From the NCBI GenBank assembly GCA_000004985.1, contig GG738872.1: 64,000 nucleotides of DNA. One strand, 5' to 3'. Source of the DNA: Naegleria gruberi (Eukaryota). The first letter of the stretch is position 1; every line of letters begins with the position of its first letter. Below are positions 2,202-36,971 of the stretch, piece by piece. The translations under genes were made by a program, and so were the position numbers. The notes under the pieces are model-generated. The model was not told the DNA's origin. It saw nothing but the letters and a program-made list of their open reading frames with translations, and made no database searches.

Positions 2202-3586
2202 TTAGAAGGAAAAACTCAAATAACTCAAACTTCCAAGATCATAGAATCTCTCAATAACCTTAGAGGTCTTCTCTTCGTGTGTCATACCCATTGCTACAAA
2301 CAAAGGTACATAGTGTTCACTTCTTGGAACAGCAGCTCTTGCATTTGGTGCAAACCTTTCGTATGCAAATAATTCTTCTGTGTTCCACTTGGAAATTCTG
2401 TCAACTAACCAATCATCAAACTCTACTGCCCATGCATCTGGAGTCTTCTTTCCCCAATTAACTCTTCCAAGATTATGAACTGTACTGCCACTTCCAATCA
2501 CTAAAACTTGTTCATTGGCAAGAGGAGCTAATGCCTTTCCAATATTGTAATGAGTTTCTATTGAGCTTCTTGGATCGACTGAGCATTGAACTACAGGAAT
2601 TTTTGCACCAGGGAAGAGAGTTTGCAAAACAACCCATGTACCATGATCGAGGCCTCTTTTATATTCTCTTCTTGATTTGATATTATTCTGATTGAGTAAT
2701 TGTTCTATTCTTTGAGCAACTTGTGGAGCACCTAATTAATCAATTCATACATTTTCGTATTGGTACAGTTCACAAATGTCAATCAATACAATTCAGTCAA
2801 CTTACCTTTAGCTGGATACTTGATAGTATACATCTCATCAGGGAATCCATAAAAATCATAAATTGTATCATAAACAGTATTAGCATCATGGAAAGTAATA
2901 GCAACTCCATTATTTGCAATTGAATCTTCCCAATGAGCAGTAAACACAACCACTGCCTTCGGAGCATCTTGTCCTTTATATTGCTTGGAAAGCTTGTTTC
3001 CCAAAAACTTATTCATGGCATGATCCAATTCAATGGCCAAAGTAGGAGCTCCATGAGCAATAAACAATGGTGCAATTCTATTCATTTTTTTCTCTTGAGT
3101 TGTTTTAATTTTTCCATTCTTGGATGATGGTTTTATAGTGCTGGCTACATCTGCTTCCTTCTCTGTCTGTACTACCTCTTTATCCTTAGTATTCTTCGGG
3201 TTGAGAGATTTGGAGAGTTTGGTTGGGTGATCAGATGCGTGCGTATTTTTTTCGAGTCCTTCAGTGGCGGGTTTCTTGAGGTCTTGTTTAGAGTTTTCCT
3301 TAATTGGAGGAGATGCTTCCTGAGGAATGCTGTGATGATTGTCATCATCATTAATAATATTTGAAGATGATGAAGATGAAGAACGAGTAAAGATTACAAG
3401 TAGAAGAGCACAACAAAAGCCGAATATTAACAAGCTCATGATAATTTTCAAAGATGAACCAGTGGATTGATTTTTGGAGATTTTATCTTCGGGAATGGGT
3501 TGCTCTTGATGAATAGGTTGTTGATAGTGATATTCCTTTGTTGCTGCTATCCTTCTCAAATGAATATCGTTGTTGCTGATGGACAT
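2202..3586 (-). CDS. Extradiol ring-cleavage dioxygenase, class III (LigB / YgiD / DOPA 4,5-dioxygenase family). It has an N-terminal extension containing a predicted TM helix (LLIFGFCCALLLVIF) and a Ser-rich linker. Two exons: complement(2806..3586) and complement(2202..2741); 64-nt intron 2742..2805 (gtaagt…attaattag).
   Basis: Translation shows the family core APLFIAHGAPTLAIELDHAMNKFLG…VVVFTAHWE…YDFYGFPDEMY (exon 1) continuing in phase 1 into …HGTWVVLQTLFPGAKIPVVQCSVDP…LVIGSGSTVHNL…RSEHYVPLFVAMG (exon 2). Splice phase was verified by hand (AAAG|gtaagt … ag|GTGCTCCACAA gives PAKG-APQV). The first real ATG is at 3586; the track start 3592 is TTG. Confidence 0.7.
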
Positions 3587-3958: not shown

Positions 3959-5703
3959 ATGATCCAACAACAAACTTTATTAACGAGACAAGTTGTGGTC
4001 ATCTTGTTATTGCTCGCTCTCATCTCTAGCCTAATTTCCGCAGCTAGTCTTGCTAATACTAATATTCCGTTCCCAAAGGATTTTAGATTTGGTGCTGCTA
4101 CTGCTGCCTATCAAATTGTATGTTTACAAATTGTTGTTAAAATAATTTGTTATAATAATGATCATCATGATGGTTATGTGTTTGATTAAATTATTATCAA
4201 ATTAAATTTATTATTGAATATAATATAATTAATTGGAATGTTACAATAATTTTATTATGATTGAATATTGAATATTGAATATTGATTATTGATTAATGAT
4301 TAATGATTTGGAAATGAATGTAGGAAGGAGCATATAAGGAAGATGGAAGAGGATTGAGTATTTGGGATACTTGGAGTCATATTCCTGGTAAAATTTATAA
4401 TAATCAAACAGGTGACATTGCTGATGATCACTATCATAAGGTAAAGGAAGATATTGCCCTGATGAAGAGTTTGGGAGTTAAGAATTATAGAATGTCAATT
4501 AGTTGGCCTCGTATTCTTCCAACTGGTCTTTTGAAACATGGTATTAATCAAAAAGGTATTGATTATTACAATATGGAAATTAATGAACTTGTTAGAAATG
4601 GAATTAATGTTGCAGTTACATTGTATCACTGGGATTTACCACAATATTTACAAGATACTTATGGAGGTTGGTTAAATTCTAAGGAAACTGTTCAAGCTTT
4701 TAGAGATTTTTCTGATATTTGTTTTGCTCATTTTGGAGATCGTGTTAAGGATTGGATTACTTTCAATGAACCATTCATTACATCTGTATTGGGACATGGT
4801 TGCAATGATTGGGCTCCAGGATTGGGTTGTGGATCAAGTCCTGCTGGAAATAGCTCAAATATGCCTTATATGGCTGCTCACTCTCAACTATTGGCCCATG
4901 CTCATGCTGTTAAGGTCTATCGTGACAAGTATCAACAAGACCAACAAGGTAGAATTGGTATTACCCTCAATTCCAATTTTTACTACCCTCTCACAAATAC
5001 CAAGGAAGATTATGAAGCTTGTGAAAGAGCTCTCTTATTTGGTTTTGGTTGGTTTGCTGATCCAGTTTTCTTTGGAGATTATCCTCAAGTAATGAAGGAT
5101 TTCGTTGAAGGAAATAGACTTCCACTTTTCACTGAGCAAGAAAAGAGATTATTGAAGGGTTCAGTTGACTTTATTGGACTTAACCATTATACTAGTAATT
5201 ATATTGGAAATAGAAAATCACCATTACCACCAGTTAATCAAAGAACTTTCAATGATGACCAAAGAACCGAAGGCTCTAGTTACAAGAATGGTGTTCCTAT
5301 TGGTCCAAAAGCTGAATCTGATTGGCTCTTTGTCTATCCACCAGGAATCAGATCCATGTTGAATTGGATTCAAAAGAGATATAATCCACAAATGATTTAT
5401 GTGACTGAGAATGGTGTTGATGCTCCAGGTGAAAGCTCAATGCCAATTAGTCAAGCTTTGAACGACACTTTTAGAGTTAACTATTTACATGACTATCTCA
5501 CAGAGGTATCCAATGCAGTGATGCAAGATGGTGTTAATGTTAAGGCCTACTTTGTTTGGTCAATGATGGATAACTTTGAATGGACCAATGGTTATAGTTG
5601 TCGTTTTGGTGTTGTCTTTGTTGACTATAATAGTCCTAATCTTACAAGATATGTCAAGAACTCTGCCAAGTGGTACAGTGAGTTGGTTAAACCATACAAC
5701 TAG
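3959..5703 (+). CDS. Secreted glycoside hydrolase family 1 beta-glucosidase. Exons 3959..4117 and 4324..5703; 206-nt AT-rich intron 4118..4323 (gtatgt…gaatgtag).
   Basis: N-terminal signal peptide (MIQQQTLLTRQVVVILLLLALISSLISAASLA). GH1 hallmarks FGAATAAYQI|EGAYKEDGRGLSIWDTWSH span the intron in phase 0. NEP acid/base motif (ITFNEPF) and TENG nucleophile motif (IYVTENGVD) are present. Ends with TAG at 5701-5703. Confidence 0.85.
4258..4308. repeat. Imperfect AT-rich microsatellite (gaatattga / tgattaatga units) inside the GH1 intron.
   Basis: Direct reading: ttgaatattgaatattgaatattgattattgattaatgattaatgatt. Confidence 0.5.
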
Positions 5704-13059: not shown

Positions 13060-13869
13060 ATAATATTTCCTCAATATTATTAAACATAACCGACTTTATT
13101 TCACTCATCTGCAATGCACATTACAATTAAGAAAAGTTGATTATCTAGTAAAAAATTGAAAATAAACAAGTCAAAAATATCTTTTATAGGGCTGTCGGTG
13201 AAGGATTCTATTCAATCAAAAAAACAATCAACACCCATCACGCAACGCAACGACATTTTTCAAAGCTCAAAAACTGTAGATTGGCACTTTCACTTTACAG
13301 TTTTCATTTGATCAACCTTTGTTGTAAGTTCAAGTCCAGATAAGTAAGTGCTCACTTTAGCTTGTCATGCAATAACGATATTCATGGTGTTAATAATAGT
13401 TTATGGTTGTCTTCTCCCAATTAAACAATCTCTTTTACAAAAAGCCAACTCATTGATTGATCTGTGAATTGTTGATCAATTTCTCCACCAAGAACACAAA
13501 TAGACTTGTTAAAAAAATCATCACCCATACAACTAGAAGTGGAAAATTAGATATTATTAATAGTAGTTGTGTTGTAATATTTAACAAATAGTAGTAAAAA
13601 ACAACAAGAGAATCAGTCGATTATCAGTAAAACACAACAAAGAACCAAGAAACTAACTGATATTATCATCAACATCAAGTGCATTCTCCAGATCGCCATC
13701 CACTCTACAAAATAAGTAACCACAGTTACCGCCACTTTTTCTAATAATACTTCCCCATTAATAATCATCATCAGAACGAGAGTACCAACCATAGCATTGA
13801 ACCCGGACCTCTCATCACAACAAACACCTTGGGCAATTTAGAAAAACCGTTGCAAAAATCAAAAAACAA

Positions 13870-15639: not shown

Positions 15640-18600
15640 TTATTGTTGAATGGTTGAGTTTGGTCTATTTTCCTTATCACCCAATTGTCTATATTTTTGC
15701 TTGATAGATTCCAAGTCGATGGAACTACTATATCTATTGGTAGCACTATTGGCCTTGATATTGGCAAATCTTTCTCTGAGACTATCAATATTGTTGGTAG
15801 AGGAGAGAGCACTCGAGTAGGTAGAACCATTAATATTGGACAAGCTTCTCATCTTTCTATAATCCTCAATTGATTTTGGTTTGGTATCAAATTGAGAAAT
15901 GGTGGCACTATTTACACTGCTGTAACGAGATAAGATGTTTTGGGAGAGGCTGGAAGTGGCAGGGGTTGTTGTTGGAATTTCCTTGAGAACTGGTCTAACT
16001 TCCTCTGGAGGAGAACTGAATGGCATTTGGTTGACTGAATGATTGACTGTAATGGTTGGAGTTTGTTGTGTAGATTCGAGGGCGACCTTCTTCGATTGTT
16101 CATGAGCAGCAATCTTGGCAACAGATCCAATAATGTACTCTTGGAAAATCTTACCAAATGATGTAGTTCCAAGGAATTCGTTGATTTTAAATTCAGGATG
16201 TTGCACTTGGAATTTGTAAAGCTTATATAATCCAGATCTTGTGGTTTCCTTATTTCCAATTAATGTACAAATTTCCTTGAGTTGATCACTCTCTGATTCA
16301 AACAAGCTGTTGGTGCTATCAGAGGATGTAAAGGTGTTAGTGTTGGTGGAAGAACTAGAAAGAGAGAGGACGTTCAACTCGTGTTCAATGTGAGAAATCA
16401 TAACCTTATTGAGTGTTGTGAGATAGGTTCTCAAAGAGTTTCCTTTCAGCTTGACAAGAGTTTGGATAATAGTCTTGATCATTCTCAAAGGGCTATCATC
16501 CTTGCCTTCAAAGAATGTTGGAGGATTGCTAGAGAGGAAGCTTTGAATATCCAACAATACTGAACCAATTTCAATGATACCAATTGTCTTTTCCAAAGTC
16601 TTAGTGAGCTTGGAGAGACACTTGATAAGTACCTTGGTAAAGCTGGTTGGTTCCTTTTCATGATCGAGGCAGGACTTTTCCAATAAAGTAATCAAGCAAC
16701 TGTAAGCAGTGGTTCTGGAACAATTTTCAAGAATACGAAGAATGAGAGTATTGAGAGCAGCAACCATCTTTTCACCATATTCAATAGTTGGTAACTTGTC
16801 ATTGAGTAAAAGTCTGAGTAAGACTTCTAAAAGATTGAGGAGAGTCTTCTTTTGTACCAATGAGGAAAAGTTTCTAGATTCAAACAAACCCATCATGGTA
16901 TTGATCATAATCTTACAAATTCTTGGACCAGAGAGACCAATAATGACAGAGTCAAAAGCAACCTCAAAGAAGATGGAAAGGGAGTAAACCAATTGTTCTC
17001 TATTCATGGAAATACCCATATCTTGGTATTCAACATGCTTATCAAGAGTCTTCATGGCATTCATAGCATTTTCAAAGTTACTGATTTTAGTGTTAGTGAG
17101 AACTCTAATGATTTGTTCGACAGACATTTGTACATCCTTAGATTGTGGAACAATATTAATCTTCTTTGGAGTTAACAAGGTGGTTGGTGACAATAATAAT
17201 TCTTCAGTAGCAAGCTTTGAGAATTTGAGCTTCTTTGGTGTAGTAAAGACACTATCCTTGACTGTTGAAATGCTTCTCTTTCCTGGAGTAGAAGGAGGAG
17301 ACATTGGACATTCGATTGGTTTTGGGAAGTCCATTTTGAACAAGGAGGATTGAACAAGAGTTTTTCTTGAGCTCTTATCATCTTCAATGACTGGTTGGAC
17401 TGGAGTAGGTTGTGTAACTGTTTTAGATTGGTTTTGCTTTTTCATTTCTCCAATAGTGAGGGAAGAGGAGGATCTTTGCAAAGTTGAAGCAGCTGGTTGG
17501 GTTTGTGGTTGTTGGGCAGGCTTAGTTGGTGGTTGTTCAGCTTTGACTGGTTGAACTTGTTGGACAGTTTGTTGGGCTGCTGCTGTTGGTTGATATTGGT
17601 TTTCATACTTGGAAATAACAGCAATGATGCTACTCTTGGAAGCATTGTTGAGATCTTGACAGAAACTCTTGATAAAATCAGCACCAGTTGTTCTGATAAC
17701 CTTTTCCAAAACTGTTTCAGCAAGTTTTCTTGTGCATGCCTTTGGGTCTTGCAAGCAGTTAATGAGAGGCTTGGCGAGGTGTTGGAGAGTATCCCTAGAT
17801 TTGTTCTTGACTTCCAAAATGTAAGTGTCAATGAATTGGAGAGCATCTCTTCTTCCTTCAGGATGGCCCTTCTCATTGTTCAAAGGCTTGTCCATATACT
17901 TGATAATGTTATCCATATTGAGAGATTTAACAAGTCCTTCTAAAGTTTGGTAAGTAGCAGTTCTGATCACCTTATTGTTGTGAGTGAATTTGGTCACCAA
18001 ATTTTGTAAAATGACTGGACTGAACTTTTCAAATCCACTACCAGCAGCTTCACCAATGAAAACATAAAGTTCCATTGTTGTACTGAGAATCTTGACATTA
18101 GCATCTTCCATTCTCTTCTTCAGAGCTTGAATGAGATTATTAAGATTTGGAGTAATTCTCTTATTAGCTTCAGTGATTATATTCTTGATTTCTTCCAAAG
18201 CTTCCAATCTAGTCTTCCAAGCTTTGTCCTCCAATTCTCCAAGAATCTTTGATGTAATCTTGCCAGAGATATCAGTTCTTGGCAGTAAATCATCAAAAGA
18301 TGGAGCACTACCTGGTTCACCAGACTTACTACTTGTACTAACATTCATACCTCTGACAAACTTGGTTTGTGTAGGTGGAGCATCTGTGAATTTTTGGAAT
18401 TCCTTCTTGATGGAATCCAACAATGCAGGCTTGACATCATTCAAATAATTCAAAAGTCCATCTCCCATAAACTTTTTCATGGAACAGAGAATTTCTGTAG
18501 CGCCAGTCTTGACAGGAGGCTTAGCATTACCCAAACAAACCTTTGAAAAATCAATAATTGACTTGACATCAATAGTTTGCATGGCAAAGTGTTCGATTGT

Positions 18601-28704: not shown

Positions 28705-30309
28705 ATGCAACAAACTTCATCTCCTTCTGCCTTCACCCAACATCACCACTATTCCCTTCAATCGGTTCAAGTTTCTTCCTTTGATTTATCCAAGAGAGCC
28801 GTCGAAAGTGGTCGAATGGATCCCGAGAAATTTGACCAAGAATTTTCTTCAAATCCTTCATCAGCTTCATCTTTAAATGAATCAAATGATTTGATTGGAC
28901 AATCAATTCCAATTTTTGAAACTTCCTTCCGAAGGGATCGTTATCAGAAAATTGTTGAACAAAAAGGATCGAGTTTGAATTTGTGGCCAAATTTTGCAAA
29001 GTGTATGTTTTTTAGAATCGAGTGATGAGGAATTTAATATTTGTGTCGATTCGGATGATGTGATGGAATTTGTATTAATATGAATTTTTAATCGAATGGA
29101 AAATTTGTTGGTGGGTTTTTTAGTTTATCAAGCAAGAGATTTTAAAGCTGGAGAATATAAAACGAGTAAGTTTTAGGAATTAATGATGTAGGAATGGCTA
29201 ATGGATGAAATAGTTATTGAAATTGATTGTAAAACTTCAGAAAGTGTAAGTGTGATTTGGTAGTTTATTCTGATTGACTGATTGTTTCGAATAGCCATCA
29301 TCATTCTTAATGTATTTCATGTCTAGATTCAATTCATACTCTCATAAATATGTAGTTCCAATCCTAGACACATACATTACAAAGAATTCCTGTTGTATTG
29401 TTACTCCTTACTACACTCAGGGAAGTATGCTTCGTTTACTCAAGACAAGATTGGAAAAGCAGAAATTCCTCAAAATTCAACAAATTTTGTGCTATTTTTC
29501 TCAATTATTGGAAGCTATTAATTATATTCATACTAATTTAAAGACAACTGTATGTATTGGAATGATTGAAAAATATGTAACCAATTTTTTATCCATATTT
29601 ATTCGAATTGGATGGCATAATACACTGAATCAACATAAAGATGTATGGTGGAATTTCCTTAGATAACATTTTTATGGATGAAACTCTGGAGAATATTTCC
29701 TTGGGTTATGTTGGAATTCACATTCATACCATGAATTTATATCTGAACAATTATTTCAACAAGTCAGAATTGTCCATGCTTGGTGGAGCCAACTTGTTGC
29801 AATCAAAATCAGAAACGACCTATAATTCCAATAACTCTTCTGATGATCTCGATGAAAAGCAAGTTGATAATCCAGAACAGCTCACTAAAAACGATGAAAT
29901 TAAGGAAATTATTTCCAAATCCTCAACTACAAATGAAGAACTAGCTGGATGGCAATATTTGGATGTTTATGCTTGTGCCATTTCAATTTATCAATTAGTG
30001 ACACTCTCCCTTGATATGTCCTCTGAGGAATCTCAAAATATTGACAAGAACTCAATTCAAGCCTCTTATACCTATCAATTAGTAAGAACTTTGCAACAAC
30101 AGCAACAATTATCAGAAGAAGAATTATCATATTGGAAGGAATATATCAAAAATAAGATTGGAAGAGTATATCACAATAAGAAACTCATCAATTTATTAAC
30201 TGAAATGCTCAATATCAGTCAATCCAAATTAACAGCTCAAATGTGCATCAAATTACTGAAAGAAATTCCACCAGAAGACGATGACGATGAAGAAAATGCT
30301 CACTACTAG
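28705..30309 (+). CDS. Protein-kinase-like gene, predicted pseudokinase (catalytic-loop HRD replaced by HTN). Five exons: 28705..29002, 29124..29165, 29214..29245, 29295..29549, 29641..30309.
   Basis: Kinase-fold landmarks in order: strand-3-like …FYQARDFKAGEYKTIIEIDCK…; subdomain IV-V …KYVVPILDTYITKNSCCIVTPYYTQGSMLRLL; VIa …QQILCYFSQLLEAINYIHTNLK (where HRDLK is expected); VIb-like ISLDNIFMDE; IX DVYACAISIYQLVTLSL. No DFG or APE recognised. Introns all have gtatgt/gtaagt donors. The exon 2/3 micro-exons (42 and 32 nt) are less certain. Confidence 0.5.
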
Positions 30310-30561: not shown

Positions 30562-32547
30562 ATGAGCGATTACGATGATGAAGACTTGGAATTTGCCATT
30601 GATGATGAGGAAATTGAAATGACGCCAGGTAAGTGGGAGAATTGTTTGCTAATGTGTTTGTGTTTGTCGGTTATTAAAAGGTACTGGACAATCCTATCGA
30701 TTTGATGAAGATGATGCCTTCATGATCGATGATGAAGATGGTACAGCCTACGATGGACAAGAGTTTGATGCAAAGGATGTTGAATATGTAATTCTCACCC
30801 AGGAAGAAATTGTTCAAGAACAAGAGAAGGAAATTGCTCGTATTGTGGAGATTGTTGGAGTGACTGATACATCGGCAAAAGTCTTGTTGAGAAAGTGTGG
30901 TTGTAAGTTTCTTCAAGTTTGATATTATTCATCAAAATGATCAATCTTATAATAATACTAATCAATAATACAATTAAATAGGGAAGGCAGAAAGAGTAAG
31001 TTAACAATATCTAGGAATAATAGTAGTCATAGTATTATAATAATAATTATTTACAATTTGATCATCAATATTAGGTTTTAAATATTTTCTTCGAGAATGG
31101 AAAGGAAGGTCTTTTGAAAGCAGCAGGTTTGAGTGAGAATGATCTTCGTGATGCTGACAGTTTGAAAGTATCGGGATGTGAAACATTTGAATGTCCACTC
31201 TGTTATGATGATGTACCTGCTGATCAATGTACAAAATTACCAGCTTGTTCTCATGCTTTTTGTAATAATTGTTGGAAGGCACACATTGAAAGTAAGATCA
31301 AGGAAGGAAAATTACAAATTCTTTGTCCTGAACTTGGATGTGCTTGTATTGTTGATGATGATCTTATTAGTCAATTTGCTAGTTCTCAAAATAAGAAGAA
31401 ATTTGATGCTAAATTTATTGAATCCTATGTTGAAGACAATGTTAGTATTAAGTGGTGTCCATCTGCACCTTGTTGTGGAAGATGTGTCCGAGTTAATGTA
31501 CCTCACACTACACCACTTGAAATTGATTGCAAATGTGGATGTTCATTCTGTTTCAATTGTTTGAAATTCCCACACTTACCAGCTACTTGTAATATGATGA
31601 CTGCTTGGACTGTAAAATGTCAAAATGATAGTGAAACATTTAACTGGTTGGCTGTAAATACAAAAGATTGTCCAAAATGTCACACTCCAATTGAAAAGAA
31701 TGGTGGTTGTAACCATATGCATTGTCATAAATGTCAACACCACTTTTGTTGGGTTTGTTTATGTGATTTCAATCACACAACATACCAACACTCTTGCGGA
31801 AGATTTGAAGAAAAGAATACTGAAAATGCCAGAGTCTCTTTGGAAAGATATTTGCACTACTATAACAGATATAAAGCTCACGAAGATTCAAGAACTAGAG
31901 AAGAAAAGACCAGAGAAGTAATCAAGAAAAAGATGGTTGAAATGTTTGAATTGAGGCCAAACTCTGCTTGGATTGAAGTTCAATGGGTTGAACAAGCCAT
32001 GTTGACACTTTTCAATTGTAGAAAGGGCCTTCAATTCTGTTATGTATTCTCATACTACATGTTTGACCCTACTGCTTGTGCAGATAAGAAGATTTTAGAA
32101 GGTTGTAAAGAGATGATTAATGAAAAGATTAGACAAAGTGCCAGAAACGTGACTGAAGATAATATTGAAATGCTTGAAAATGCTACTGAAAAACTTTCTA
32201 ATTTATTGGAAAAGCCAGTCAAGGACTTCTTTAATGAGAATGTTAAACAAGATGTTATGGGATGTACAGTATTGTGTGATAGTAGACTTCAATCTGTATT
32301 CAATGTAGTAAGGGAGGATCTTATGATTTCTGGCGAGTTTGGCTGTCCAAGACCAAAATCAACTGTTACAACAAGAGCTACAGCTATTAAATCAGGTCAA
32401 TCAATGCTCTCACGTATGATGGAAGAAGCAGAGATTTTAAAAAACAAAAAGCAAGAACTTGAAAAGCAAAAACAATTAGCTGGTACCATTGGTACAGACT
32501 TGGATGATATCGAGTTACAAAAGGCAATTTTAGAGTCCATGAAATAA
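30562..32547 (+). CDS. ARIH1: Ariadne-family RBR (RING-between-RING) E3 ubiquitin ligase, ARIH1/HHARI ortholog. Four exons: 30562..30628, 30681..30902, a 14-nt micro-exon 30982..30995, and 31075..32547.
   Basis: Acidic N-terminus and UBA-like region …YVILTQEEIVQEQEKEIARIVEIVGVTDTSAKVLLRKCG|WKAER|VLNIFFENGKEGLL (human …[22 protein letters not shown]). RING1 CPLCYDDV…CSHAFCNNCW; IBR …WCPSAPCCGRCVRV…CKCGCSFCFNC; RING2 CPKCHTPIEKNGGCNHMHCHKCQHHFCWVC; Ariadne-type C-terminal helical domain. The micro-exon is required to restore phase between exon 2 (ends …TGTGGTT|gtaagt, phase 1) and exon 4 (phase 0 after ttag at 31073-74). Confidence 0.8.
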
Positions 32548-32549
32548 AT

Positions 32550-33729
32550 CTACATGGTTGTGTATTTATTCATTTGTGGTGATTGATAGGATGATGAAGG
32601 GAATTGAGATTTTTGATTTACCAACATGTCTAATGATTGTTCAAAACTTCTATCTGTTAATAATAGGACTTCCTTAATATCCTTATCTGAAAAGTGCATT
32701 TCTGATAATTGTCTATACTTGTCACAAAAGTCAAATACTTTCAATTGATCCCCTCTGTATGCCTCTGTTGCAAATCTTGCTAATTCACTCGAAAATCCTG
32801 GATATTTGTAAACTTCCAAAACATTATAGTAGCACTCTACTTCTTCATCTGTCGAGAAACCAAGTAATGGGTTTGGATCCATTGTTGGAATAGCTGTGTA
32901 AGTTGGTTGTGCTTGATAGGAGTCAACCCCAGCCACTGGTGGCGCATAGGAAGAGTGTCTATAATTATTAGTTGAATTGTAATTATTGTTTGGTGATACA
33001 TTGGTATTAATACCATTGATAATACTATTAGTATTACTATTATTATTATATGGAGATATTGTTCTGCCAGTATTATTTACATTTTCAATAGAAGAAGAGA
33101 ATGGAATATTTACAAGTTGATTAATTGATTGTGTAAGACTTGGTGGTGGATTGGTAGTGTTAATTATTATTGATCATGAAATTATTTTGTGGAATAACTT
33201 CCTTGTTAATCTTACTATTAGTGTTATTATTGCTGCTACTTGTAGTCAATGAATCATTATTTCCTTTTGTTGAATTTAATTCTTCCAACAGGGCAATAAA
33301 CTTTGCCTTCCTAGTTTTTTCCTCTTCTTCCTCTCTCTTCATCAATTCTTCAGTTCGTTTAATGTATTCCTTCTCAAAGTCTGGTCTGAAATTGTACTCG
33401 ACCACCAATTCAACACTTCGTCTATTATTTAATGATGATGGTACAGTATTATTAACTTCCTCTTTCCGATCAGAATTTCCATCCATCACCACAGGAGAAA
33501 TCAAACTCAACGATAATCGATTCGTAGCTGTTGATAATATCCCACTATATTGTTGTGTTTGATTATTATTATTAATAATTGATTGCCCACCTCCGGCATT
33601 GCTCGTCATCGACGGAGGTAAACTCTTCCTATTTGTCCTGCTCACAACGTTCACCAATTCAAAATCATCTTCAACGCTTTTTTCCTCATAGCGGAAAGGT
33701 CTGGCTGGAGCATTGTATTGTTGTTGCAT
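32550..33729 (-). CDS. Hypothetical Asn-rich protein present as two consecutive ORFs in different frames (33160..33729, then 32550..about 33157). Either a frameshifted/pseudogenised gene, an assembly indel, or an unrecognised intron. The C-terminal part has a compact helical UBA/CUE-like domain.
   Basis: Upstream ORF starts at ATG 33729 (MQQQYNAPARPFRYEEKSVEDDFELVNVV…) and stops at 33160 within …QNNFMINNN*. Immediately downstream a second frame is open from about 33157 to 32550 (…SIIINTTNPPPSL…NNYNSTNNYRHSSYAPPVAGVDSYQAQPTYTAIPTMDPNPLLGFSTDEEVECYYNVLEVYKYPGFSSELARFATEAYRGDQLKVFDFCDKYRQLSEMHFSDKDIKEVLLLTDRSFEQSLDMLVNQ…). No convincing GT…AG intron joins them. Confidence 0.3.
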
Positions 33730-33809
33730 TTTTTGTTTTGTGAAAAGGAAAAAGTAAAGATAAGAATAGAATAAAAACACGTGTTCTATTTGGGTTCTAA
33801 ACTGGTAAA

Positions 33810-36800
33810 CTAAGGTTCTAACAAATCGATTTCATCATTTTCAGAGACCTCTTCGTCTTCATCATCAGTATTGTCTTCTTCCTGTTGAGTAGATTGTTCT
33901 TCAATACTAGCCCACAAATCATCATCGAGAAATTCAATTTGTGAATCGGAGGAACATTTTCGTTTCTTTTTTGGTTGTTGTTCTACTGGAGTGGAGGATG
34001 TTGAGCTATCTTCTTTAACTTTTACATGGCATACTTCGATGGAACATCCAGCTTTCGTGAGTAGATCAATCCAAATAATTTGTTTTTCACTGAGTTTGTC
34101 TCCTGGTCCTTTGATTTCACTGAGGAGATGTTCGTGTTTTCCATCTTGCTGAATTTTCCATAATATTAAATCAGGCATTCCACTTCTATTTTCCTTAATG
34201 TCTTCTGCTAGAGTTTGGAGAATTGTTGTGGTGACCTTGATTGGAAAACATTCGGCAATAGCTAGGAGAGCTTCCAATTTTTCATTTTCCTTATTTTCGG
34301 TTTGGCTACTCGAATCATCATCATCTTGGATTTCCATTGTCATTTCCTCATCTCCATCTTCCTCTGTTGGTTCAGTAAAGGCTCTCCAATTACAACAAAC
34401 AGCATTAACGCCATAATTTTCATTCCAACATGTCTTGATTTGCTCTTTCAAATATTGAGCACCTTTTTCTTCAATTTCTTCCAGTCGTTTCTTGAACTTG
34501 TCTCTCCTACGTATGTAGAATGCATCAGTCATGAAATCAAGAGGGCACGATTGGTACTTGTTCTGGAATACATATGGTATTGATGAGTCAAAAACAATAT
34601 TCCACATTACTAGCATAAACATCATGGCCCACAAAGATCCTTCAGAGTGTGCTCCTTGCATACAATTCTTCATTTCATAATGTTCCATAGCAAAATCTTC
34701 CACACTCACAATTGTTTCGTTGTCCTTATGTGAAATAAAGTGGTGTTTCTTTTCTCTATATTTTCTATTTTCTAACTTTTTTGTTTTCCCTTGAATGTAT
34801 ACTAATTTGGGTGGTTTAACATTGGTGGAGATGAATTTATCAATTACTGAGCTTTCTTTGGATAGGGAAGAATATAGTTTCGAATTGATCTTTTCCAACT
34901 TTTTACAAATTCTAAAGTAGCGTTTTTCAAGAGCATACAACTTGTTAGGCGGCAAACTAATACTCCTAGCAAATACAGAACCAGTCTCATTGAAAATTCC
35001 AGCCTTACAAGATTGAAGAGCATTCTTATAGGACTCTTCAGTTTTCAAATGTTCATAATCGAGTGCTAGTCTATTATAGAACTCTCCTCTTTTACCTATC
35101 ATGAATGGTGACTCTATTATTTGCTTGGTATATTGTATGGCCAATTCATAATTCTTATTTCTCTCTAACACCTTAACACAGAACCACAAGAGTCTTCCAT
35201 AAATGTATCCACATCTAAATCTTAATAAATAATAATCCATCGTGAAATCTGAATTGGATTCCTCGTACATTTTCTTCAAAATTGAGGTATCTTGCTCCAA
35301 TCTTGATGCGATATCTTTTGCAAAATTATTGAATTTTTCAACAATTCCATCTACATTACTCTTTTGAATCATATCCAATCTCATTTCTATGGTTGAAAGA
35401 AGTGCATCTTGTGAGTTTTGTGCATCTTGGCCATTCTGTTTGTTAGGAGTTGGATCAGGAACGTCAATCGAATCCATCCATGTATTGGCGATATCAAATG
35501 CTTCTTCGTATTTGATAAAATCCTCTCGAGAACTGAACAAGCTCTTTTGTTCTTGAATTTCATATTTTGGGAAGATTGCAATCTTCTTTTGTTCTAAAAT
35601 CATAATGGTTGCGTTATCAGCTGATTGTGAAAGAAAATAGAGGTGATGAATACGTTTGAAAATAGTTTTCCCATATGATCCTAATCTATAGTACATTGAT
35701 TCAATTTCCTTGCTAGAAGTTGATGCTTTTGCAATAAGTTTCAGGATGTCAGATGGTCTCATTATTGTTGGATCTGAATCTTTGGCACTATCATCTAGTG
35801 GTTTTGATTCGGTCGGCTCCTTCTTTTTGAGAAAGGTAAGCTTCTTTTGTTGTTTCCCATCGCTTCCAACAGAGTTCAATGACTCTGGTTTGGTAATTAT
35901 TGTTTTGATAAGGTCTTGTTTTGGAGAATCTGTTGTCTTTTTGGATTTTTCTTTTTTTACAATATTACTGAGATTCTTCTTGTCTATAATTGCTTTCAAT
36001 TGCTTGTTTGTAAATTCAGATAGCAAGCTTTTCAAATCGTCAATATTCCACTCAGTTGATGATTGTTCCCTATCCACAATAGATAAGCTGTCAACCAGCT
36101 GTACACTACCAAGATGTGAGAGTGCCTCTTTCACACTCTTGCAACATATCACTTGATTTTTCTTTCTCTCCTCGCTATCCTCTTCATTAATATCTATGGT
36201 TTTTTCCAACTCTTTCTTATATTTATCCAACTCGGTTTTTGTGAAATATTTCTGTTTTCTATTAAACATTCTAATATACAATCGTTGAGATGCTGTACAA
36301 AGATTTTTAAAATTACTGATATACTGCTTTTCTTCATCGATAAATAGATGGCCATCTCTCTTCATGACAGTATCCAAAATTTCCAAAAAGTGAAACAAGT
36401 AATAGCTTCTCACTCCATCAAATGAATCCTCTTCATTCAATCCCTGTGAGTCTAAGTTACCAAATCGTTGCTGACTATCCTGCTTGACCAAATCTGTAAG
36501 AGGTGAATTATCAAGAATGGTCACAACATGTGAATCGTGATCTTTTCCACCATCAATATCAATAATTGCTGATGAGAATAATTTACCACCATCGGAAGAG
36601 GAAGGAGTTCTGTTGACCATTTCACCAACAAGATTGTCATCATCATCGAGAATAATCAGGGCATCCTCTGCAGTATTTCCCTGTGAATCTACCTCCGAAA
36701 TACTTCTCTTCTTCGGAGTCACAGAAGAAGAATTATTATTACCTTTCGAAGGCTGGAAGAAGGAAAGAATTGAAGCTGATTTAACTCCAGGAGAAATTGA

Positions 36801-36971
36801 TTTCTTTTTTGATGACAGACTACTACTTGTACCAGGTGTTGATGATGAAGATTTCTTGCTACTTGCACTTCCACCACTTTGGCTTTTACTTGACGAAGGT
36901 GTCTTTGGTGATGGTGTGATGGAGTTTGCACCCTTCTTGTGTTTGCTGGAAGTGGGTGTTTTTGGAGGCAT
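33810..36971 (-). CDS. FAN1: FAN1 (FANCD2/FANCI-associated nuclease 1) ortholog with C-terminal VRR-NUC nuclease domain; single exon, 1053 aa.
   Basis: Blocks aligning with human FAN1: VRSYYLFHFLEILDTVMKRDGHLFIDEEKQYISNFKNLCTASQRLYIRMFNRK (human [53 protein letters not shown]); EGSLWAMMFMLVMWNIVFDSSIPYVFQNKYQSCPLDFMTDAFYIRRR (human [47 protein letters not shown]); VRR-NUC motif GMPDLILWKIQQDGKHEHLLSEIKGPGDKLSEKQIIWIDLLTKAGCSIEVCHVK (human GLPDLVVWN……[21 protein letters not shown]…GAEVEVCHV). ATG at 36971. Confidence 0.8.
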   Translation of the reverse strand: MPPKTPTSSKHKKGANSITPSPKTPSSSKSQSGGSASSKKSSSSTPGTSSSLSSKKKSISPGVKSASILSFFQPSKGNNNSSSVTPKKRSISEVDSQGNTAEDALIILDDDDNLVGEMVNRTPSSSDGGKLFSSAIIDIDGGKDHDSHVVTILDNSPLTDLVKQDSQQRFGNLDSQGLNEEDSFDGVRSYYLFHFLEILDTVMKRDGHLFIDEEKQYISNFKNLCTASQRLYIRMFNRKQKYFTKTELDKYKKELEKTIDINEEDSEERKKNQVICCKSVKEALSHLGSVQLVDSLSIVDREQSSTEWNIDDLKSLLSEFTNKQLKAIIDKKNLSNIVKKEKSKKTTDSPKQDLIKTIITKPESLNSVGSDGKQQKKLTFLKKKEPTESKPLDDSAKDSDPTIMRPSDILKLIAKASTSSKEIESMYYRLGSYGKTIFKRIHHLYFLSQSADNATIMILEQKKIAIFPKYEIQEQKSLFSSREDFIKYEEAFDIANTWMDSIDVPDPTPNKQNGQDAQNSQDALLSTIEMRLDMIQKSNVDGIVEKFNNFAKDIASRLEQDTSILKKMYEESNSDFTMDYYLLRFRCGYIYGRLLWFCVKVLERNKNYELAIQYTKQIIESPFMIGKRGEFYNRLALDYEHLKTEESYKNALQSCKAGIFNETGSVFARSISLPPNKLYALEKRYFRICKKLEKINSKLYSSLSKESSVIDKFISTNVKPPKLVYIQGKTKKLENRKYREKKHHFISHKDNETIVSVEDFAMEHYEMKNCMQGAHSEGSLWAMMFMLVMWNIVFDSSIPYVFQNKYQSCPLDFMTDAFYIRRRDKFKKRLEEIEEKGAQYLKEQIKTCWNENYGVNAVCCNWRAFTEPTEEDGDEEMTMEIQDDDDSSSQTENKENEKLEALLAIAECFPIKVTTTILQTLAEDIKENRSGMPDLILWKIQQDGKHEHLLSEIKGPGDKLSEKQIIWIDLLTKAGCSIEVCHVKVKEDSSTSSTPVEQQPKKKRKCSSDSQIEFLDDDLWASIEEQSTQQEEDNTDDEDEEVSENDEIDLLEP

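Follow-up and report, generated by a model that had tools for sequence, protein, structure and literature searches.

A 64,000-nucleotide (nt) stretch of the Naegleria gruberi genome (contig GG738872.1; here called the window) carries an ARIH1-like gene for an RBR ligase on its plus strand at 30562-32547. The question that this locus raises is how its transcript crosses the 172 nt between exon 2 and the large exon that encodes the RBR module (30903-31074, here called the interval). Exon 2 ends in phase 1 (AGA AAG TGT GGT T/gtaagt), and the large exon opens with tattag/GTT TTA AAT, an in-frame TAG at 31072-31074 standing directly before it. Therefore, the downstream exon must begin at 31075. If the whole 172 nt were removed as one intron, the frame would shift and a stop would follow about 20 codons later. 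We conclude, with a probability of about 0.9, that the third exon of this Ariadne (ARIH1/HHARI-like) gene is a 14-nt internal coding exon at 30982-30995, and that the public model, which lacks it, is wrong.

A candidate micro-exon in the interval

The candidate exon, GGAAGGCAGAAAGA, is bounded by canonical AG and GT sites, aaatag upstream (AG at 30980-30981) and gtaagt downstream (30996-31001). The final T of exon 2 is the first base of a Trp codon. Spliced through the micro-exon, the gene has four exons (Table 1) and an open reading frame (ORF) of 1,776 nt that encodes 591 amino acids. Across the micro-exon the protein reads ...LLRKCGWKAERVLNIFFENGKEG..., that is, ...AKVLLRKCG-WKAER-VLNIFFENGKEG... 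The initial annotation, made from the letters of the window and a list of their ORFs, had proposed this exon. Its coordinates, phases and flanking hexamers, including the end of exon 2 at 30902 and the TAG, were all as we found them.

The public protein for this gene (XP_002676359, also EFC43615, NAEGRDRAFT_34212 and D2VHM7; "predicted protein [Naegleria gruberi]") shares 99% identity with the 591-amino-acid model. The next protein matches are from Naegleria fowleri (70%) and Willaertia magna (61%). The public protein is an exact suffix, beginning 36 residues in, of the translation obtained from the window with an alternative donor at 30917. Therefore, the window is the N. gruberi NEG-M reference. 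The public model begins at Met36, without exon 1, and crosses the interval differently. It reads through the GTAAGT at the end of exon 2 (TGT AAG TTT CTT CAA) and joins a weak donor, the GT at 30917, directly to 31075. The result is ...LLRKCG-CKFLQ-VLNIFF..., with CKFLQ in place of WKAER, so that the two ways of crossing the interval give proteins of equal length with five residues different. Across this region the two predicted mRNAs are also equal in length, each having 14 nt more than the form that skips the segment.

We scored both versions with a profile hidden Markov model built from homologs, from which the Naegleria orthologs and the Willaertia protein (P0003) were left out. The micro-exon model scored 527.6 bits and the public model scored 513.4, a difference of 14.2 bits over five residues. 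We also enumerated all GT...AG configurations with one or two introns between 30800 and 31140 that were in frame and free of stops (n = 972). The micro-exon model ranked first, and the configurations ranked second and third also used the micro-exon. The public model was the best configuration with a single intron. A dinucleotide-preserving shuffle of the interval, with the outer splice hexamers kept, was repeated 3,000 times. Some frame-restoring AG..GT mini-exon was present in 71% of the shuffles, and none of them reached 527.6 bits (best shuffle, 526.6).

The five residues fall in a conserved place. In a 120-sequence alignment, position 97 was Trp in all 119 sequences aligned there, position 100 was Glu or Asp in 117 of 120, and position 101 was Arg or Lys in 110 of 120. 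At these positions the public model has Cys, Leu and Gln.

The gene product is an Ariadne-subfamily RBR ligase. The Pfam profiles Ariadne, IBR, IBR_1, IBR_2 and UBA_ARI1 matched it above their curated cut-offs, and the RING1 profiles matched weakly, below cut-off. The Ariadne profile (PF19422) scored 104.4 bits over residues 346-562 (cut-off, 23.5). The RING1-IBR-RING2 (Rcat) module is present, and GGCNHMHC in RING2 aligns with the human GGCNHMVC that contains the catalytic Cys. The acidic N terminus of the subfamily lies in exons 1 and 2, and the UBA-like domain with its conserved Trp was complete only with the micro-exon. UBA_ARI1 (PF21235) then matched over its whole length, profile positions 1-41, with 31.9 bits (cut-off, 26.9). 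On the public model it scored 18.3 bits, below the cut-off, and the match ended at profile position 27 of 41. Structures of human ARIH1 (5UDH, 4KBL, and 7B5L) matched at E values of 1e-74 to 1e-77, including 8e-77. The alignment to human ARIH1 was ungapped over both micro-exon junctions, and by the offset from the structure alignment (query 97 to chain residue 140) Trp97 is the equivalent of W140 in the UBA-like domain of HHARI. The human and N. gruberi proteins differ in that their overall identity is only about 35 to 40%, estimated by eye, and that the C-terminal tail is longer in N. gruberi. The core reading of the initial annotation, an ARIH1-like RBR ligase in which the 14-nt exon gives RKCG-WKAER-VLNIFF in agreement with the human protein, is strongly supported by this ungapped alignment, the full UBA_ARI1 match and the invariant Trp, as well as by the 14-nt exons of sister species described below.

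The equivalent Trp has been studied in human Ariadne ligases, which are activated by neddylated cullin-RING complexes. HHARI needs its UBA-like domain to bind neddylated cullin: with the triple substitution V123A/I124A/W140A, its interaction with neddylated CUL1 is lost or significantly reduced. In TRIAD1, W100A weakens CUL5 binding (PMC3817463). By analogy with HHARI and TRIAD1, the residues from the micro-exon are implicated in the surface or fold through which Ariadne ligases are coupled to neddylated cullins.

Features of the donor sites also separate the two models. GTAAGT occurs 36 times in the window, compared with 21.3 +/- 4.5 expected from shuffles, and is thus enriched. GTTTGA, the hexamer at the alternative donor, occurs 80 times, with 75 expected, and is not. 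When a GTAAGT followed at least 50 open codons, that frame closed within 25 codons at 17 of 21 sites, compared with 35% for GTTTGA; about five of the 17 cases are trivial because the TAA of the hexamer itself ends the frame. A clear exception, at 18329 on the minus strand, is a GTAAGT in the interior of a very long ORF. A purine was at position +3 in all 18 introns mapped in three Naegleria orthologs, and the donor at 30917 has a T there.

At 14 nt, the exon leaves too little room for a bridge between a 3' splice-site complex and a U1 complex, as in exon definition. Both flanking introns are short, so each would be recognized across itself as a unit (intron definition), and they would be removed one after the other. 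The first two bases of the micro-exon would complete the Trp97 codon, and the rest would encode K-A-E-R, at the place where the UBA-like domain has its third helix region. With consensus GTAAGT donors on both sides, inclusion of the micro-exon would be efficient and is probably constitutive, and skipping would be non-productive. The micro-exon is almost certainly real and conserved, and we infer its inclusion in N. gruberi mRNA from homology, conservation, and the annotations of sister species.

Some other properties of the interval were noted. Introns 2 and 3 are both exactly 79 nt long and both begin GTAAGTT. We considered whether they are duplicates of each other, but their mutual alignment was gapped, AT-rich, and unconvincing. 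A TACTAAT in intron 2, about 20 nt upstream of the acceptor, resembles a branch point and is a candidate picked by eye. We sought other readings of the interval without success: its ORFs on either strand were short and unremarkable, and its predicted RNA fold was no more stable than those of shuffles (z = 0.26). An Rfam scan returned a single match, sR5, in exon 1, at 17.4 bits against a threshold of 40.

Table 1. Parts of the N. gruberi ARIH1-like gene, the alternative donor, and the junctions that distinguish the predicted mRNAs (window coordinates)
Feature	Coordinates	Strand	Length	Boundaries and phase	Content or remark
Exon 1	30562-30628	+		ATG to CCA G/gtaagt, phase 1	Encodes MSDYDDEDLEFAIDDEEIEMTP(G); no counterpart in the public model
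Intron 1	30629-30680	+	52 nt	gtaagt...taaaag, phase 1	
Exon 2	30681-30902	+	222 nt	Ends ...LLRKCG + T	Acidic region and first two-thirds of UBA-like domain
Intron 2	30903-30981	+	79 nt	gtaagt...aaatag, phase 1	Splits T/GG of Trp97
Micro-exon (exon 3)	30982-30995	+	14 nt	GGAAGGCAGAAAGA	With preceding T, W-K-A-E-R, residues 97-101
Intron 3	30996-31074	+	79 nt	gtaagt...tattag, phase 0	
Exon 4	31075-32547	+	1,473 nt, including stop		End of UBA-like domain, RING1, IBR, RING2, Ariadne domain, C-terminal tail
Alternative donor	30917-30922	+		CAA/gtttga	Used by XP_002676359; exon 2 then ends at 30916, 14 nt further on
Micro-exon-form junctions	30902/30982 and 30995/31075				GTGGTT-GGAAGGCAGAAAGA-GTTTTAAA
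Public-model junction	30916/31075				TTTCTTCAA/GTTTTAAAT, also TTTCTTCAA-GTTTTAAATATT
Skipped-form junction	30902/31075				GTGTGGTT-GTTTTAAATA

Sister genomes and the history of the introns

Splice maps of the orthologous loci were rebuilt exactly from deposited proteins. The orthologs were FDP41_002440 in N. fowleri (locus L001; XP_044563333, KAF0978620, and CAG4710361.1, which are identical proteins), C9374_012509 in Naegleria lovaniensis (locus L003; XP_044554151), and that of W. magna (locus L002). N. fowleri has a 14-nt exon, GGAATTCTGAGAAG (WNSEK), between introns at L001 3447-3502 (phase 1) and 3517-3568 (phase 0). The identical 14-nt exon is present in N. lovaniensis, between introns at L003 3434-3486 and 3501-3544. 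These exons resemble the N. gruberi candidate in their position in the protein (G/E^W...[KR]^[VL]), their phases (1 and then 0), their length, the T/GG split of the Trp codon, and their GT-AG introns. They differ from it in encoding WNSEK rather than WKAER and in having flanking introns of 44 to 56 nt rather than 79 and 79 nt. The sister genes also have four or five more introns downstream, where N. gruberi has none, and in those species the micro-exon is annotated, whereas in N. gruberi it is not.

In W. magna, the upstream exon runs on without a break into TGG AAG GCT GAA AAG, and of the two introns only the phase-0 one is present (L002 3298-3357). Intron 1 (TPG^T, phase 1) is common to the three Naegleria species. 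Therefore, exon 1, which the public model omits, is supported. We also read through the exon 2 donor in N. fowleri (TGT AGG TAT TTT CTT TTG TTT TTG ATC TAA) and found no codon-initial GT before the stop. Therefore, the bypass used by the public model is not conserved.

No intron was present at either micro-exon boundary in the N. lovaniensis and Willaertia paralogs or in a 12-intron Acanthamoeba homolog. Therefore, both introns are specific to this ortholog lineage. By its distribution, the phase-0 intron is older than the split between Naegleria and Willaertia. The phase-1 intron, which created the micro-exon, would owe its distribution either to a gain in the Naegleria stem or to a loss in Willaertia.

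The orthologs differ in their numbers of introns, with three in N. gruberi (all in the first ~510 nt of the gene), seven in N. fowleri, eight in N. lovaniensis, and one in Willaertia. That N. gruberi has kept introns only toward the 5' end is a pattern like that of 3'-biased intron loss. N. lovaniensis has a second very short exon, 23 nt at L003 4346-4368 (GATGTAACCACATGCACTGTCAG), which codes for (G)CNHMHCQ, the catalytic-Cys motif of RING2. It is flanked by introns at L003 4284-4345 (phase 1) and 4369-4427 (phase 0); N. fowleri shares the first of them but not the second, and N. gruberi lacks both.

Alternative readings of the locus

The most far-reaching alternative has two separate parts, which we considered jointly and regard as unlikely. 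The first is that the micro-exon is a splicing-level switch, acting through skipping and decay or through a 30917-donor protein without the Trp that contacts cullin/NEDD8, for example in the amoeba-to-flagellate transition. Ariadne activity would then be tuned or uncoupled from neddylated cullins. The second is that the exon was born by the gain of an intron 14 nt upstream of an older one in the Naegleria stem. Willaertia, the paralogs, and Acanthamoeba all lack the phase-1 intron. Such a gain would be a dated example of the birth of a micro-exon in Discoba.

A simpler version of regulated use is that the micro-exon is real but some transcripts skip it, with a frameshift, an early stop and likely decay, or use the 30917 donor, so that inclusion would determine how much active ligase is made, or of which type. 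Both events are physically possible with GT-AG sites, and a tendency to be skipped is intrinsic to very short exons. However, two perfect GTAAGT donors and short introns favor efficient, intron-defined splicing, and the 14-nt length has been kept in three species without a conserved in-frame bypass. We consider regulated use very unlikely.

Even less probable is that the public JGI/NCBI model is right. Exon 2 would then run to 30916, and a single 158-nt intron (30917-31074, gtttga...tattag) would contain the 14-nt segment merely as intron sequence. This configuration is in frame and stop-free, it leads the single-intron configurations in score, and it is the deposited one. It also bears on two statements in the initial annotation, which had called the micro-exon required to keep the ligase in frame. 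The exon does restore the frame, together with the W-x-x-E-[KR] motif, but splicing from 30917 to 31075 keeps the frame as well, so the word "required" was too strong. The contrary outcome named there in advance, a frame-keeping donor that dispenses with the 14-nt segment, does exist in silico and is the one used by XP_002676359; it replaces invariant residues, however, and is unavailable in the sister species. The public model has to read through a perfect GTAAGT, and it gives up the invariant Trp as well as the conserved Glu and Arg/Lys. Its lower profile score and its subthreshold UBA_ARI1 match also speak against it. Moreover, it missed exon 1, which points to ab initio prediction without transcript support here.

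Several observations weigh against the micro-exon. An in-frame bypass that does without it exists, and it is the one chosen in the only public model. The profile advantage comes from only five residues, and 35 of the 3,000 shuffles reached 520 bits, within about 8 bits of the real score. An annotated Willaertia intron begins gtttgt, so donors of the GTTTG type are possible in this group. The exact 591-amino-acid product had no match in the protein collection, and neither did a version starting at Met36. The spliced-junction 28-mer GTGGTTGGAAGGCAGAAAGAGTTTTAAA had no exact matches in JGI metagenome contigs. BRAKER1, run with RNA sequencing (RNA-seq) data, produced the annotations of N. fowleri and N. 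lovaniensis (PMC6831594, PMC6125883); RNA-seq support for the micro-exon in those species would follow from this method, the papers themselves being silent on that exon. A search with the N-terminal 190 amino acids for transcript-derived N. gruberi proteins returned zero matches, failing to find even the known protein, and is hence uninformative.

The last alternative, a decaying pseudogene in which a disrupted region happens to hold a match that looks like a micro-exon, is barely conceivable, because the absence of any single ORF across 30903-31074 is set against an intact 1,473-nt downstream ORF, the alignment of all RBR zinc ligands and the catalytic Cys, the failure of every shuffle to reproduce the match, and an identical architecture in two other species.

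We therefore return to the four-exon gene. On the sequence evidence, the public model (XP_002676359/D2VHM7) is misannotated, having missed exon 1 and swapped the micro-exon for 14 nt of intron 2. Anyone using this entry in alignments, structure prediction, or domain censuses would infer a degenerate UBA-like domain in Naegleria Ariadne, because the public protein lacks the invariant Trp.

Comparison with known microexons, and neighboring features

Coding microexons of 15 nt or less are conserved in plants and are pervasively misannotated (Yu et al. 2022, PMC8831610). The N. gruberi exon resembles them in its size class, in lying inside a conserved protein domain, in being kept between species, and in having been missed by the reference annotation. 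It differs in belonging to a heterolobosean (Discoba) whose genes average about 0.7 introns and in being a single locus, known here from genomic sequence. The neuronal microexons of animals, which are 3 to 27 nt, SRRM4 dependent, typically multiples of 3, and tissue specific, lie in long introns with dedicated enhancers. The N. gruberi exon shares with them that it is a very short internal coding exon, but at 14 nt its skipping shifts the frame, its flanking introns are 79 nt each, and its use is probably constitutive.

In the literature searched, Naegleria microexons were mentioned only incidentally. The new findings are few: the N. gruberi reference model has errors at the micro-exon and at the 5' end. 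The exon itself had already been annotated in both sister species. For the N. gruberi genome, four exons, one of them of 14 nt, make an unusual gene, but the biology is not unusual, and our result is a gene-model correction. The initial annotation had described the genome as one with very few introns, which is fair at 1.7 exons per gene in N. gruberi NEG-M (PMC8296547), although the upstream neighbor appears to have several short exons. Exons of 15 nt or less thus occur in, and escape annotation of, an intron-poor heterolobosean reference genome of 2010. Re-annotation that draws on homology or RNA-seq would probably uncover more of them.

The upstream neighbor (28705-30309, plus strand) apparently has several introns. 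Two apparent exons, of about 42 nt (29124-29165) and 32 nt (29214-29245), are delimited by GTAAGT donors at 29166 and 29246, and these short exons are followed by a kinase-like exon (...VTPYYTQGSMLRLLK...QLLEAINYIH). Elsewhere in the window, at 13324-13349 on the plus strand, a pair of GTAAGT hexamers, 20 nt from each other, occurs where no coding frame is obvious. The downstream neighbor (32550-36971, minus strand) has long AAT/ATT-rich stretches (Asn-rich, of low complexity) around 32950-33250. Its ORF is broken near 33160-33180, where there may be an intron or a low-complexity linker.

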